From the IMG/VR virus record IMGVR_UViG_3300010965_000002, positions 1 through 64,000 of that record: a stretch of DNA of 64,000 bases. The stretch is one strand, 5' to 3'. Shown here piece after piece: positions 24,380 to 37,061 of this stretch. This stretch comes from a virus. Both the position numbers and the translations under genes were made by a program. Each line of letters starts with the position of its first letter. Within the stretch, counting starts at the first letter, position 1. The notes under the pieces are model-generated. The model was given only the letters and a program-made list of their open reading frames with translations, searched no databases and was not told the DNA's origin.

Positions 24380-24820
24380 AGGGTGTCCAGTCAATCTGAT
24401 AACAGAGACTCCATCATGATCAGGAGGCTGGACTAAGCTAGAGTATTGCTACCCTAACCGCACTCTGCCGGTGGTCAGCTTTTAGGCTGCCATGCGGAAG
24501 CTACTTTCGTTTGCATTTACTTTGTTTGCATACGTGATTTTCGAGGGTACATGCTACCTCGTGTTGTAAACGCCACTATCTTACGCTGTCGAAACCAGGG
24601 CAGGCCCATCAGAAGAACACTACAACACCACACTAAAGCCCAAGAAGATATTGCTTATTTGCGGCAGTGCATCCCTTTCGGGTAGTCCGTTGATACAACT
24701 AGACTCAAGTGCGCTTCTGGTGGACCTGGCGGGAATTGAACCCGCGTCCAGCATACATTCGCTTTGTCTTTCAGAGCATGAACACGGTACGCAGGTCTTG
24801 CAACCTACTGCGTCATACTC
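24380..24820 (-). ncRNA. ssrA: Circularly permuted (two-piece) tmRNA
   Basis: Acceptor piece ending CAGGTCC-A-CCA at 24718, intervening segment 24608-24717, coding piece starting GGGCCTG at 24607 (G3.U70), pk1, tag ORF 24482-24514 ANESSFRMAA*; outer ends approximate. Confidence 0.92.
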
Positions 24821-29851: not shown

Positions 29852-29945
29852 ATTGTACCACACTTTTTTGCACTGTAAACCAGTATTTTCGTGCTTTTTT
29901 TTCGCTATTTTAGCGGTTTTTTCACGTTTTTGGCAGTTTTTCGAT
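29852..29945 (-). promoter_or_regulatory. sigma70 promoter with upstream phased A-tracts
   Basis: TTTACA (29874-79)-16 bp-TACAAT (29852-57). Confidence 0.8.
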
Positions 29946-30164
29946 GTATTCCACGACTTGGGACATGGTTTTCAGTCCCTCAGCCGTATCATCAGCGATT
30001 TCAATGCCAAATTCATCTTCAAGGGCCATAACCAGTTCGATGGTGTCCAGAGAGTCAGCGCCGAGGTCAGAAATGAAGTTGCTTTCCATTGTGACCGTTT
30101 GTGGGTCAATGCCAAGTTGTTCGCCTACGATCTTGGCAACACGTTGTTGGAGTTCGATAGTCAT
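29922..30164 (-). CDS. acpP: Acyl carrier protein
   Basis: [24 protein letters not shown] with phosphopantetheine Ser. Confidence 0.93.
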
Positions 30165-30172
30165 AGTCGTCC

Positions 30173-31144
30173 TTACTTCTTCTTGGCAACGGCTGCAACA
30201 GGCAATTCGTACCAAGGCCACTTGCCCTTGTTGTCGCTTTGCACAGCTTGCCACTTCTTGTGCGTACCTGTGGTTTCTTTGAGTTCGTCAATGGCCGACA
30301 AAGCGCATGAACGGAAGGCGGCCAGTGCTGCAACCATCTTAGGTGTCTTGTACTCGCGGGTCACCAAGTTTGCTTCGGTAGCCATACTCTTGATACCTGC
30401 GGCATTCATCTTGCCGTAGTTCAAAGTAGCGGGACGGTAGATGTCTTTGAGCGTAGTAACCAAAGCAGGTGAGAAACCAAGCAGCTTGTAGCGACCGTCC
30501 AAAGCAGACACCGACGGCAGAGGCGCACCACCAACATAGACGATTGCTTGCACTTCGCCTGCATCCAGTGCCGCACGCAGCTTGTCACCGTTTTCAAACA
30601 ACACGACTTCGTAGTTGACGTTACCTTCTGCACGAATCAGACGGGCCGTAACCATGCTGCCACTATTTCCAACCACACCCACACGGTAGCCAGCCAACTG
30701 GTCAACTTGTGTGAAGGTCACAGCTTCTTGCTTGATGCGAATGGTGCCTACGCCGATACCACCAGCTTTCACGCCAGAGTCAGCAGGTGCGACAAAATGG
30801 ATTTCTTCGGGATGCAATGCAACCAGCGTCTTGACAGCGTTCAAGTCCTCAGTACGCTTGCGCCAGAACAACACATCGGTTTGAACGATGCCTGCATTGA
30901 TTTCGTTGTTTAACAGACGGTCAACGCTTTCGACCGAGCCTTTGCTTTGTACTTCGGTCAGCGTCAGGTCACCAGTGCAACGTGCCTTGAGTTCACGGAA
31001 CATGGTCACGTAGGTGCTGCAACTGTCTTTGACACACTCGCCCGTGGCGACTTTGAGTTCGGCCTGTTGGGCTTGCGCACCACCATAAGCCATTGCAAAC
31101 GCCAGGGACATACCGGCAATACGGATTGAGTTAGAAACTTTCAT
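30173..31144 (-). CDS. TAXI-family TRAP solute receptor-like protein
   Basis: Signal peptide; [21 protein letters not shown]. Confidence 0.8.
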
Positions 31145-31185: not shown

Positions 31186-31347
31186 TCAGTTGATCTTCAT
31201 ACCCTTCATGGAAGAATCTTCTTCCGATTGCACAGGGCGCACGTTCTTGCCTTTGTTAGGCTCAACATCGCTCTCTGCAATGAACAACACCAGTACCAGC
31301 ATAATCAGTACCAGCAAAGACCCGATAAGACGAAAAATCCAGTTCAT
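31186..31347 (-). CDS. 53-aa single-TM protein
   Basis: MNWIFRLIGSLLVLIMLVLVLFIAE..; coupled to upstream stop. Confidence 0.65.
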   Translation of the reverse strand: MNWIFRLIGSLLVLIMLVLVLFIAESDVEPNKGKNVRPVQSEEDSSMKGMKIN

Positions 31348-32099
31348 CGTGCATACTCCTTTTGACGAACGTTAATGTCAACCACCATTGATTCATCACC
31401 GTCCGGTGGAGGTAACGATGGAGGCATGTACTCACCTGGGTTATCCATGAGTTCAGTTTGCATTTCGGCGAATGCCTTGTTAAGACTGTGCTGCACACTT
31501 TCGATAGCAGTCTCAGTCTTGATCTTGGCGTAAACGTCTTCGCCTTCCATGCCAGCAGCTTCGTTTAATGCTTGTGCAGCCAGGCTCATTTGCCAGATAG
31601 CATCAGCACGTCTAATCTCAGCCTCGAACTGTTCAAGTTCACCTTTGACTTGCTTGTACTTAGCTTCACGCCGGGCAAGCAGCATTTCCATACCTTGGAG
31701 TTGTCGAATAAATTTCTCAACATCTTTGGGGAACTGCACTTTGAACATTTCTACCTTGTCAGCAAAGCCGGAGACTTCGGTACGAAAGGCAGTAATACGC
31801 TCCTTGAAAGCCGCCTTGTCAGCCATACGCGCTTGAAACACATTCTGCAATGTCTCAATAGGATTGCGATTAGCCTCCGCTTTGATTGCCTTGAGCTTCC
31901 AGTTGGCAAACTTCATACTGACGGCAGGCGCAAAGTTGACCACGGCCAATCCGATCACCGCAGCCACCACCAGACCAATGGCACCCTTGACCACCAAGAA
32001 GATGATAGGTGACACAATCAGAGCCGCAATGAATGCAAGGCTCCACTTAGCGATAGACGCTATACGTTGCTTTTTTACAGCAAATTCTTTCAAGTTCAT
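31344..32099 (-). CDS. Membrane-anchored coiled-coil protein (PspA-like, tentative)
   Basis: Two N-terminal TM helices then a long coiled coil. Confidence 0.6.
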   Translation of the reverse strand: MNLKEFAVKKQRIASIAKWSLAFIAALIVSPIIFLVVKGAIGLVVAAVIGLAVVNFAPAVSMKFANWKLKAIKAEANRNPIETLQNVFQARMADKAAFKERITAFRTEVSGFADKVEMFKVQFPKDVEKFIRQLQGMEMLLARREAKYKQVKGELEQFEAEIRRADAIWQMSLAAQALNEAAGMEGEDVYAKIKTETAIESVQHSLNKAFAEMQTELMDNPGEYMPPSLPPPDGDESMVVDINVRQKEYAR

Positions 32100-32106
32100 A
32101 CTGGCC

Positions 32107-32805
32107 TCACTTCTTTGTGTCTTCACGAGGAGACGTTTCAACCACGATCTTCGCAGCGCCCGCTTTTGCGATTGCTAGACGTTGACCAAAATCCAGCAAG
32201 CCTTTTGCCTTATAGACGTTGACCGCTGTAGCAGCATCAATAGCCATACGAGTTTGTTCGTCTGGGATAGTAATGAACGTAATGCTGTTCAAATGCACAC
32301 CACGCGATTCGAGGACTTTGTTCGCCTGAGCAAACAACTGATCTTCAAATGTCGAAGGATTGAAGTCCACAATGTCATGCTTCAAAGTGGCCTCGGTCAC
32401 GATGTCGCGCAGGCGCACATCAATCACAACGTTCTCAGCCGTTTCAAAGGCCGACATCTTTGTGTTAGCCGCCGCGTCAGCCGCCGAACCAGACTTGCCG
32501 AGGAACTTGGCTTCCTTGATGAACTTCAAGCCATCGACAATTTCGTAGTCATAGGCGATCTTGATCTTGACCAATACGTTGCCAGCGAACTGAGCTTGAA
32601 ACTCCGTGTCACCTTGCATCGGATAGTCAGGCAACACAGTTTTGTACTCACACGTTCCAACAGAGGTTGGTACACGTTGACCTGCGGCCACCACAGTCCA
32701 CGATACACCGCAGTCTGTAGTCACGAGGGTTTTGACATTGGAAGGCGCTCGATCACACGCCGCCAACAGAGCGATAACGCCCAAGAGAAGAATTTTCTTA
32801 ATCAC
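32107..32805 (-). CDS. SPFH/band-7-like lipoprotein
   Basis: Lipobox LLAAC; SPFH-like core; GTG start. Confidence 0.6.
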   Translation of the reverse strand: MIKKILLLGVIALLAACDRAPSNVKTLVTTDCGVSWTVVAAGQRVPTSVGTCEYKTVLPDYPMQGDTEFQAQFAGNVLVKIKIAYDYEIVDGLKFIKEAKFLGKSGSAADAAANTKMSAFETAENVVIDVRLRDIVTEATLKHDIVDFNPSTFEDQLFAQANKVLESRGVHLNSITFITIPDEQTRMAIDAATAVNVYKAKGLLDFGQRLAIAKAGAAKIVVETSPREDTKK

Positions 32806-33017
32806 GATGGAACCTTTCCAGAAAAGATTGAATAACCGAACTTGCCAAGCCAAAGGGCCAGCATCACACCTACAAAGACAGCCAGCGCCAGCAGCATAAT
32901 GCTGATAATGCTAGACCCGTACAAACCGCCGTGCAGCACATAGGAACCAGCTTCGGTACCTATGTACACAACCAGCATCAACGCGATGAACATCACGATT
33001 GCGCCTATGAATTTCAT
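32802..33017 (-). CDS. Small two-TM membrane protein
   Basis: Hydrophobic ORF with GGAG SD. Confidence 0.65.
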   Translation of the reverse strand: MKFIGAIVMFIALMLVVYIGTEAGSYVLHGGLYGSSIISIMLLALAVFVGVMLALWLGKFGYSIFSGKVPS

Positions 33018-33038: not shown

Positions 33039-33084
33039 TGGTAGGCCGTGTTGGATTTGAACCAACGACCAAAGGATTATGAGT
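33039..33084 (-). pseudogene. 3' half (positions 31-76) of interrupted tRNA(CAU), probably Ile2
   Basis: ACTCATAATCCTTTGGTCGTTGGTTCAAATCCAACACGGCCTACCA complements the 5' half at 33574-33604. Confidence 0.92.
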
Positions 33085-33161
33085 TGGTAGGCTAGGTCGG
33101 ATTCTAACCGACGATCAACGGCTTATGAGGCCGCTGCTTTAGGACTCTAAGCTACTAGCCC
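33085..33161 (-). tRNA. Nested intact tRNA(CAU), probably Ile2
   Basis: 77-nt cloverleaf, loop CTCATAA, C4-G69, A73, CCA; no initiator features. Confidence 0.9.
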
Positions 33162-33568
33162 TCACGGAAAATGTTACCTACTTGCCATCTTGACAGTTTC
33201 AAGAGCTTGGCAATATCTACAAAAGTGTTGCCTTGGTTACGCAACTTAGTAATACGTCTGTGCAAGTGCCTTGGTCTAGCATGTCCAGACTCCACTACTG
33301 CCTTTCTTCGATTTTTAATAGGTGTTAGTATTTGGAGATTGTCTATAGCGTCATTCGACTTGTCACCGTCAATATGGTCAGCTTCCTCGTGTTTGCCAAG
33401 GATGCGACCGTGTTTAACAGAGAGTTTGTACTTAGCCATCGTTATGGTTGTACGCCTTAGCGTGTAGCCAGCAAGGGGCACCAAACACACGTACCACCTG
33501 CATTCTTTCTTGTGCCATACTCGATAGCCTTTGTAACCGACAAATGGGTGTTTAAGAATCTTTGCCAT
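33155..33568 (-). CDS. HNH homing endonuclease with C-terminal HTH
   Basis: ADHIDGDKSNDAIDNLQILT..N (HNH motif); TFVDIAKLLKLSRWQVGNI HTH. Confidence 0.9.
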   Translation of the reverse strand: MAKILKHPFVGYKGYRVWHKKECRWYVCLVPLAGYTLRRTTITMAKYKLSVKHGRILGKHEEADHIDGDKSNDAIDNLQILTPIKNRRKAVVESGHARPRHLHRRITKLRNQGNTFVDIAKLLKLSRWQVGNIFREG

Positions 33569-33573
33569 ACTAA

Positions 33574-33604
33574 CCTCTGCTCTAACCAACTGAGCTAACG
33601 GCCC
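33574..33604 (-). pseudogene. 5' half (positions 1-30) of interrupted tRNA(CAU)
   Basis: GGGCCGTTAGCTCAGTTGGTTAGAGCAGAGG. Confidence 0.92.
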
Positions 33605-33610
33605 TACGTG

Positions 33611-34084
33611 TTATCGCTTCAACGGATAGAAGATACCTTCGTGCTTTATCCGTGTCTTACATACGTCGCGTTGCAGTTTAACGTATTCGTGCAAAGGCAC
33701 CAGCGTTTCATTGTGCTGCACCAGATCATCGTAGTATGCCCACCAAGCGCCAGGCTCAAGCAGTTCAGCCGGAATGACTCCGGGACGAATACTACCTGTG
33801 ACATTCAGCTTGACTGACACCAACATCACTTCTTGGGTATGCCATTGCTTATGCGCATCAGGCTCCATATCCAGAATAGCTTGCTGGTGCATACCACAGC
33901 CTTCTGTGTTCGGCCCTTTAATCCAAGTGCTGTACCAACCACGCATCAAGTCGAACCCACGGCTGCTCTTGCATTCAGCTTCCGAGGATTCAATTCCAAC
34001 AATGATTTCTCTGTGAAGCTCTGGAACATCATCACTCCAGGGCGTCATACCCAAACCCTCAAAGAGGGCATCGAAACATAACAT
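33611..34084 (-). CDS. Hypothetical protein
   Basis: AGGAG SD. Confidence 0.7.
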   Translation of the reverse strand: MLCFDALFEGLGMTPWSDDVPELHREIIVGIESSEAECKSSRGFDLMRGWYSTWIKGPNTEGCGMHQQAILDMEPDAHKQWHTQEVMLVSVKLNVTGSIRPGVIPAELLEPGAWWAYYDDLVQHNETLVPLHEYVKLQRDVCKTRIKHEGIFYPLKR

Positions 34085-36349: not shown

Positions 36350-36642
36350 TACCAGCTTACCTCCGTGTACGCATGGCTGCATGGATGACCAGGGTCAGGG
36401 TCTGGATGGTCAAACACTTTGTAGCCGTTGGCACGCAAACGGGTGGTGAGAGCCTCTTGTTCTTCGCGTGAAGCGTAGTCAAGGCGACTGCCTCCAATGT
36501 CGCTCCAAGGGTTGATAAGAGACTTGTGGCCTTTCTCTGCTTGAACACGAATACGTGCGCAGAGATTCTCCCACATGGTGTCGATCTTTTTGCTGTCAAC
36601 GAAGGACTCGCTGATCTTACGGGCGTCTGATGCTTTCATCAT
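36349..36642 (-). CDS. Hypothetical protein
   Basis: ORF. Confidence 0.7.
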   Translation of the reverse strand: MMKASDARKISESFVDSKKIDTMWENLCARIRVQAEKGHKSLINPWSDIGGSRLDYASREEQEALTTRLRANGYKVFDHPDPDPGHPCSHAYTEVSW

Positions 36643-37061
36643 TCACCTGCCGTTTCTTGTTCAGAGGTGAAGCGCAGTTCACACGGTGCGTTAGGGTTGC
36701 GGCCATTCTGACCACCGCCTTCGTTCGTGATCTTCGCCATTGCTTGCTCGACCTTGGTTTCGGCAACTTCACGGCTGTAGATTGCAACCACTGCCTTGCC
36801 ACTGGTGTGGGCTGCCATCATGATCTGCCGCGCACGCTCACCTTCCATAGCAAACACTTCACGCAGTACGTCAACCACGAACATGAATGAGGTGCTGTCA
36901 TCATTGTGCAGCAAGACTGCAAACATCGGAGGCTTGGCAGTCTTTTCGTCATTGACGGGTGCCAGTTCTGGAGGCCGCTCGATAACGGCAGTGCCGCCTG
37001 CATCACCATCTTGTTGCTCTGGTGTGTTGTTGCCGAAAATGCGTTTGAGGATGTCGCTCAT
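36639..37061 (-). CDS. clpS: ClpS N-end-rule adaptor
   Basis: PPMFAVLLHNDDST..FVV.VL..VF..A..IMM.AH..G.AVV..Y.REVAETKV. Confidence 0.92.
   Translation of the reverse strand: MSDILKRIFGNNTPEQQDGDAGGTAVIERPPELAPVNDEKTAKPPMFAVLLHNDDSTSFMFVVDVLREVFAMEGERARQIMMAAHTSGKAVVAIYSREVAETKVEQAMAKITNEGGGQNGRNPNAPCELRFTSEQETAGE

Follow-up and report, generated by a model that had tools for sequence, protein, structure and literature searches.

How does a phage come to carry a tRNA gene that is interrupted by a nuclease gene and by a second, complete tRNA with the same anticodon, and what might the two inserted genes do there? The locus that raises this question lies on the minus strand of the 64,000 nucleotides analysed here (the window), which form the initial 64 kb of a linear viral contig of 176,943 bp with an estimated completeness of 72%. 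The gene content of this contig includes a topoisomerase II, a helicase, and a ligase. We left the phage unclassified because its best cultured matches are only 42–43% identical.

Layout of the locus and its components

Read along the minus strand, the 5' half of a tRNA gene is followed by 5 nt, an HNH open reading frame, a complete tRNA(CAU), and the 3' half of the first tRNA gene (Table 1). A preliminary description had placed the halves, the HNH gene, the nested tRNA, and a 489-bp insert at coordinates that all proved correct when we read the sequence again. It had also claimed that removing the insert restores a cloverleaf: ARAGORN indeed finds a 77-nt tRNA(CAU) in the rejoined sequence, with G1.U72, C4-G69, C5-G68, and the anticodon stem GAGGA/TCCTT. 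The joint is exact, with no base lost or duplicated, and the target tRNA is interrupted between standard positions 30 and 31. The split tRNA is not a chance resemblance, because 12 base pairs form between the halves across the insert and the rejoined 28–29-nt junction exactly matches intact tRNA genes in at least 118 viral and at least 120 prokaryotic stretches. Among the prokaryotic matches listed, most are from Betaproteobacteria and Pseudomonas, and 91 of the 115 listed chromosomal tRNAs with the same arm show the Ile2 signature G68-G69-C70-A73. Nor is the layout an assembly artefact, since a contig from another study (X2) spans 33151–33637 with five differences and unrelated phages share the arrangement. 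We thus regard as confirmed that a tRNA gene is split here by a nested HNH and tRNA cassette.

Table 1. Components of the split tRNA locus and its anchor gene, in window coordinates.
Feature	Coordinates	Strand	Remarks
5' half of split Ile2-type tRNA(CAU) gene	33574..33604	-	31 nt, standard positions 1-30
Inserted cassette (5-nt spacer, HNH gene, cargo tRNA)	33085..33573	-	489 bp
HNH endonuclease gene	33155..33568	-	137 aa; Pfam HNH_3, PHROG 14913
Nested cargo tRNA(CAU), encoded CCA	33085..33161	-	ARAGORN; Rfam 65 bits
3' half of split tRNA gene	33039..33084	-	positions 31-76; adjoins cargo CCA
Upstream flanking gene, outside the element	33611..34084	-	157 aa; anchor for orthologous alleles

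Apart from the 5 nt, the insert consists entirely of ORF or tRNA, and its GC content is 45% vs 50% for the window. ARAGORN run with its intron search did not call the split gene. Since tRNA finders and gene callers miss such halves, this layout is probably under-reported.

The nested tRNA, hereafter the cargo, is the sole intact CAU tRNA of the 177-kb contig. The preliminary description had noted that it differs from the target at the insertion site, and two pairs of the anticodon arm are in fact changed: C31-G39 and C28-G42 stand in place of A31-U39 and A28-U42, the 31-39 pair adjoining the break. The 11-nt anticodon-arm core GA-CTCATAA-TC, present in the rejoined gene and in intact alleles, has no copy in the whole 177-kb contig. 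It is missing from 7 of the 8 intact cargo tRNAs. Five cargo variants keep 98% of the cloverleaf pairs and show two-sided changes in all four stems. Their covariation score was reached by none of 500 shuffles, which is indicative only because the sequences are few and related.

The determinants of the lysidine-bearing tRNA-Ile2(CAU) for TilS and IleRS are the CAU anticodon, C4-G69, C5-G68, and A73. The split gene carries all of them. The cargo has C4-G69 and A73, with U5-A68 in place of C5-G68, and its best phage matches are annotated as Ile or Met; the variant in L121 has both C4-G69 and C5-G68, that in L146 neither. The cargo is therefore likely, but not certain, to be a true Ile2 substitute, as C4-G69 is present but pair 5-68 is changed. 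AUA makes up 12.7% of the phage's isoleucine codons. The D- and T-loops of the cargo (33161–33085) are unusual: the D-loop lacks the usual GG and the T-loop has A56. G18/U19 together with A56 may compensate for the G19-C56 elbow pair, and the T-loop change also abolishes the T-loop motif recognised by SegB.

The HNH ORF matches its Pfam family above the cut-off and has a weak C-terminal helix-turn-helix match. The domain order is an N-terminal beta-sheet domain, a D64-H65...N72...N77 core, and a C-terminal helix-turn-helix, with D64, H65, N72, and N77 invariant in eight homologs. The predicted structure (pLDDT 82) has I-HmuI (1u3e) as its top Foldseek match, at a weak level (probability 0.98, E 0.034, TM 0.43), and I-HmuI is likewise the sole nuclease in a PDB profile search, again weakly (E 0.12). 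Compared with the homolog in L120 (DNA 86.5% identical), the gene shows 39 synonymous vs 11 non-synonymous codon differences, so the protein has evolved under purifying selection.

Both ends of this ORF are interlaced with tRNA sequence. The stop codon occupies nt 5–7 of the cargo. The sole Shine-Dalgarno-like motif before the ATG, 4–5 nt ahead of it, is GAGG-T, i.e. tRNA positions 27–30 plus the first inserted base. Given this position, and the 5' remnants that precede the ATG in L119, L120, L121, L125, and L205, the GAGG end of the broken 5' half likely doubles as the Shine-Dalgarno of the HNH gene. In the case of T4 segB, tRNA processing at a comparable overlap was suggested to restrain expression (PMC2330249), and the overlap of the stop codon with the cargo may similarly keep HNH expression low. 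The window also encodes a permuted two-piece tmRNA (24391–24810, tag ANESSFRMAA), found in L121 and L142 as well, which could tag a non-stop HNH message.

Alleles of the orthologous site and related cassettes

We located orthologous alleles by anchoring on the upstream gene. Relatives show four states of the site: intact, split, cargo with a 3' scar, and cargo alone. In L142 the site holds one intact canonical tRNA(CAU), and a tRNA-Ile is its best match in E. coli. L146 has a cargo variant, 4 nt, then a 3' half, and no HNH. L143, L144, and L145 carry the cargo alone, 77/77 identical and exactly in the place of the split gene, between flanks that are 87–92% identical. This last allele could arise by recombination at the short identities between the 5' ends and between the 3' ends of the two tRNAs; it may also represent the origin of the cargo instead of an end state.

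Contigs from four other studies (X2, X6, X11, X13; X6 is an RNA run used for contigs only, with no bearing on splicing or expression) gave a view of the populations. In X6 and X11 both flanks are covered (depth ~85 and ~7) and the coverage over HNH is zero, while in X2 and X13 the HNH gene is at about one third of the flank depth. Empty alleles, which the preliminary description had suggested looking for, are thus found both in L142 and in population contigs. Phage contigs with a tRNA half diverge from the window sequence exactly at 33084 or 33574. Loose ends that enter the other tRNA half were counted only if the same contig holds a phage flank, because host tRNAs could be their source. An empty junction of exactly the window's type, which host tRNAs share, was not bridged by any contig with 31 nt on each side. 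A joined form in X13 (33084–33578) was set aside: it has four other letters between, one side is short, and it is probably the tRNA of another organism. Elsewhere in the tRNA region, L142 and L121 have a tRNA-Val(UAC) where the window (~26690–26600) has unrelated sequence and no tRNA.

The close homologs of the HNH protein form a clade of nine proteins (support 0.96, FastTree). A tRNA(CAU) directly follows the HNH gene in all nine close relatives with readable flanks (the window, L120, L121, L122, L125/126, L127, L141, L205, and the frameshifted L119; P0003 was left out of the counts). For P0026, a tRNA(CAU) after the HNH gene was predicted beforehand, and the locus fitted. This strict link to one anticodon holds across cargo tRNAs of five unrelated types, so cargoes have been exchanged.

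Parallel cassettes, the second thing that had been proposed for checking, are also present, e.g. in L125/126, L120, and L205. Target remnants flank the cassette in L119, L120, L121, L125/126, L127, and L205, in tRNA backgrounds and neighbourhoods that differ. Their 5' remnants end at or near position 30 and their 3' remnants start at 31–32; 3' halves starting at 31 or 32 after the cargo are also seen in L125/L126 and L146. Full nesting occurs a second time in L125/126, where the C-terminal domain, the cargo, and the target tRNA are all different and the 3' half again begins at position 31. In L120 the HNH protein is 92% identical and the cargo 76/77 identical, with eroded halves. This near-identical cassette lies in an unrelated neighbourhood, and the cassette has therefore moved horizontally.

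These loci also document decay. Halves are truncated, mismatched, or missing in L119, L120, L121, L127, L146, and L205, and in some homologs their spacing is off by 4–6 nt. L119 and L121 have 5' halves only; L122 and L141 have HNH and tRNA with no halves at all. The HNH gene is frameshifted in L119, whose cargo retains the 11-nt core, and in L205. The latter, a locus read to check a prediction, shows a 5' half, the frameshifted HNH, and a hybrid tRNA (546–622) in which the 5' part of the cargo and the 3' half of the target are joined in their shared loop, with mismatched stems, which is the expected outcome of a deletion in a nested locus.

Among 58 more distant HNH loci in IMG/VR, most have no nearby tRNA, and the exceptions are mostly among the closest. 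A generic pattern of T-arm, CCA, and 3' half gave nine matches in IMG/VR, all by chance; neither a pattern of the cargo D-arm nor the upstream gene had a match there, and a metagenome scan gave nothing beyond L127, already found. Runs of degenerate tRNA fragments lie beside the cassette in L127 (6529–6700) and L120 (2195–2250) and suggest repeated insertion and decay. At L150 (2318–2923), an Ile2-like 5' half and a broken HNH precede a tRNA whose anticodon is UAU and whose extra arm is long; this tRNA could decode AUA with no need for lysidine. The wider HNH family has further members next to or overlapping genes for tRNA-Ala, tRNA-Thr, or tRNA-Phe (L128 6001–6573, L154 2462–2925, L208, L212).

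A sister system at tRNA-Arg(UCU)

Distant HNH relatives, in a separate clade with 31–43% identity over the N-terminal domain, show the same pattern at tRNA-Arg(UCU). The tRNA-Arg is intact in five of the kuraviruses read (Bas88, SGF2, IME267, TH34, and Bas90; L213–L215, L218, L219). In five others (Bas91, O18-011, YF01, Bas93, and 1-6bf; L206, i.e. Bas91, PQ850614, 1464–1977, and L216, L217, L223, L224), the same site holds a 5' remnant, an HNH gene, and a different tRNA-Arg(UCU), the cargo being of two types. The 5' remnant ends at position 30 in O18-011 and YF01, and at ~27 or ~20 in the others. Each of these ends coincides with microhomology to the Shine-Dalgarno of the nuclease. The 5' junction need not mark the cut, because selection for the Shine-Dalgarno or microhomology may fix it. 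In L148, both Arg halves surround cargo and HNH.

In Aeromonas phage P19 (L207, OM339718, 1433–2024), a tRNA(CAU) is split in the loop, between C34 and A35, with no replacement. The interrupting gene encodes a related HNH of 167 aa, and its stop codon contributes to the loop. The two halves differ from the intact G2/AS-zj allele except in the anticodon arm, yet still pair together.

Beside some of these HNH genes lie tRNA-like RNAs that are not annotated; they combine the anticodon arm of an Arg(UCU) tRNA with a long extra arm and lack a normal D-arm: L217 976–1078 (Bas93), L224 1016–1125 (1-6bf), L148 2395–2473, and L209 ~1914–1997 (Pseudomonas phage Ty). In Bas93 and 1-6bf their acceptor stem is extended to ~19 bp, and in phage Ty the HNH stop codon falls within the anticodon loop. 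After the tRNA-Arg, many kuraviruses have a further conserved, unannotated RNA-like element with a T-arm and a CCA end (L206 ~1990–2105; L215, L219, L223).

Proposed mechanism, alternatives, and known systems

The reading that we favour, and judge probable, is that of a free-standing homing endonuclease of the HNH type, which would nick tRNA(CAU) genes in their anticodon arm while bringing along a substitute that resists it. The gene has the marks of such enzymes: an intact HNH domain in a stand-alone ORF outside any intron, patchy presence at an orthologous site, purifying selection, and later decay. From the sequence comparisons we infer its target, the immunity of the cargo, and homing as follows. 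The cassette would be transcribed along with the tRNA region and the HNH protein translated from the Shine-Dalgarno of the broken 5' half; processing of the cargo 5' end would remove the stop codon, and enzyme levels would stay low. In a mixed infection, the I-HmuI-like enzyme would nick an intact Ile2-type tRNA gene, with core GA-CTCATAA-TC and junction 30|31, and repair would insert a copy of the cassette, with homology provided by the flanking DNA or by the tRNA halves. The outcome seen in the window is a split target gene with the cargo as only intact CAU tRNA. The halves would then erode, the HNH gene would be frameshifted or deleted, and the cargo alone would remain, the site being still resistant once the nuclease is gone. 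The layout suggests that the enzyme may act where the cassette is inserted, which is also the case for intron-encoded enzymes. The shared junctions can also reflect inheritance from one ancestral insertion.

A broader version of this reading is possible, but we put it forward tentatively: these cassettes would be portable cut-and-rescue gene drives for RNA genes, in which each HNH clade reads the anticodon arm of one tRNA, jumps between unrelated phages with tRNA halves as the only homology, swaps its cargo, and leaves a resistant tRNA when lost. If so, much of the divergence of phage tRNAs would be an escape from phage-borne DNA nucleases, not from host anticodon nucleases, to which it is at present attributed.

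The alternative that survives best, although we find it unlikely, is that the cargo drives the spread. A diverged tRNA would escape host tRNA-cutting defences, the HNH would merely lie next to it and be directed at a different site, or at a generic tRNA motif as SegB is, and the split would have arisen once by microhomology recombination and then been inherited. That phage tRNAs can evade host tRNases is established for Septu and retron-Eco7 (PMC13096335). The persistence of the cargo without HNH in L143–L146, the coincidence of the 5' junctions with Shine-Dalgarno-like microhomology, and the lack of halves in L122 and L141 all agree with such a scenario. Yet it explains neither the purifying selection on the nuclease nor why one HNH clade is tied to CAU despite five unrelated cargo tRNAs and two C-terminal domains and another is tied to Arg(UCU). 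Cargo-driven spread and homing can both be partly true.

We give much less credit to a nuclease aimed mainly at the tRNA-Ile2 of the host or of a competing element, with the cargo rescuing AUA decoding and the split phage gene as collateral damage. The intact junction is an exact match in many chromosomal tRNAs of Betaproteobacteria and Pseudomonas, the Ile2 signature is frequent among the listed ones (91/115, above), and AUA accounts for 12.7% of the isoleucine codons of the phage. However, patchy presence, decay, and loss in close relatives fit a selfish element better, and we reason that the pool of a stable tRNA would shrink only slowly after one nick in a host gene.

Rejoining of the halves at the RNA level, with the insert behaving like an intron and both tRNAs being made, is very improbable. 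The halves are perfectly complementary and are predicted to pair again in the precursor (acceptor stem pair probabilities 0.36–1.0), and normal processing after the cargo CCA could release the 3' half exactly at position 31. Against this, neither the window nor any of 12 related loci matched an Rfam group I or group II intron model, the insert has just 5 nt that belong to neither ORF nor tRNA, the final base is G in the 5' exon and A in the insert instead of the expected U and G, and the halves in homologs are degraded or absent as described above. RtcB is also absent from the contig, which counts little in a genome that is 72% complete; at that same ~72% completeness, TilS had no match either. 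A search of the contig for T4-type RNA ligase gave no match, and neither did the control of that search. The proposal that the element compensates by substitution instead of splicing is thus supported: there is no intron RNA, the halves are eroded or missing in most homologs, and the cargo is structurally conserved.

Several readings were rejected. A group I intron in the tRNA gene would have a ribozyme core, a U before the 5' splice site, and a terminal G, all of which are missing here, and the halves of a rejoined split tRNA would be conserved and complementary across relatives, which they are not. Integrative elements insert into tRNA genes, but at this locus HNH is the only gene, the joint is exact without duplication, and there is no flanking repeat among the repeats listed. 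A passive tandem duplication is at odds with two tRNAs that differ in all stems and a cargo that has its own relatives. Finally, an assembly chimera of two tRNA-bearing genomes, conceivable in that tRNA genes are shared sequence that breaks assembly graphs, is effectively refuted by X2 record 18, which comes from an independent study and spans the upstream gene, the 5' half, HNH, and the start of the cargo, and by the repeated nesting in L125, L126, L120, L146, and L205 from other samples.

Read as a homing nuclease that brings a replacement for its target, the cassette can be set against several known systems. SegB of T4/T6 is a free-standing homing endonuclease of a phage tRNA region that cuts inside tRNA genes (PMC2330249; PMC13096335). 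Like the HNH described here it spreads along with neighbouring tRNA genes, and a cut of its mRNA by tRNA processing just before the stop codon was proposed. However, SegB is a GIY-YIG enzyme whose target is the generic T-loop motif found in many tRNA genes at their 3' end, whereas the HNH is tied to one anticodon. SegB also lies between tRNA genes in a phage (T4) that keeps sensitive sites, whereas the HNH lies inside its split target with a substitute of the same anticodon. The T4 genes segF, segG, and mobE share with the cassette a nuclease gene outside introns and a donor allele that replaces the cut recipient; Mob enzymes are nickases of the HNH type in which DNA binding resides in a separate C-terminal domain (PMC2988022). 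They differ in that hundreds to thousands of bp lie between cleavage site and nuclease gene and a homologous allele is converted in place, whereas here the insertion site is the presumed target, the resistant copy is a whole paralogous gene within the cassette, and the unit moves between non-orthologous sites. In Aeh1 nrdA (mobE) and T4 gene 60 (mobA), an HNH gene also interrupts a critical part of a gene without splicing (PMC2988022), but there the protein pieces reassemble and work, whereas here the pieces decay and the carried replacement would supply the function. I-HmuI has the same order of N-terminal sheet, HNH core, and C-terminal helical domain, but is 16% identical, and its gene lies within a group I intron that interrupts a DNA polymerase gene.

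HNH genes have been noted in phage tRNA clusters (PMC6409571). Those of T5, F-TflI, F-TflII as well as F-TflIV, are endonucleases of the tRNA gene cluster that vary between relatives (PMC10644984, PMC2330249), and the likeness is drawn here through these citing papers only. Group I introns in tRNA anticodon loops, as in Azoarcus tRNA-Ile (PMC13168695), resemble the cassette, as integrative elements do, in that the insertion is in a tRNA gene and tRNA function is preserved; the cassette differs from both in having no ribozyme, integrase, or att repeats, and the interrupted gene is restored neither through splicing nor by a fragment that the insert supplies.

In the literature covered, we found no published account of a tRNA gene split by an endonuclease gene with a nested replacement, but an earlier description may exist. 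Novelty would concern the layout only, because a nuclease with a resistant allele that replaces a sensitive one is known intronless homing. To the layout we add the four-state series at one orthologous site, the cargo-alone state, and a set of filled and empty alleles in cultured coliphages. The substitute gene would be a third way for a homing endonuclease to persist in an essential gene, besides splicing (introns, inteins) and reassembly of pieces (Aeh1 nrdA). The allele series displays the states of the whole proposed cycle at one site and suggests that it ends with a resistant tRNA of altered sequence and without any remnant of a nuclease. Nuclease genes of this kind may thereby alter phage tRNAs for good, which would explain, in addition to host defences that cut tRNAs, why phage tRNA genes turn over fast and differ in their anticodon arms. 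The sister system makes this testable, since the BASEL collection of cultured E. coli phages includes both filled and empty alleles.

Near the tRNA region, the window also encodes an acyl carrier protein-like protein (29922–30158), a solute-binding-like protein (30173–31144), a pair formed by a PspA-like coiled-coil protein and a band-7-like protein (31344–32853), and a ClpS-like protein (36639–37061).
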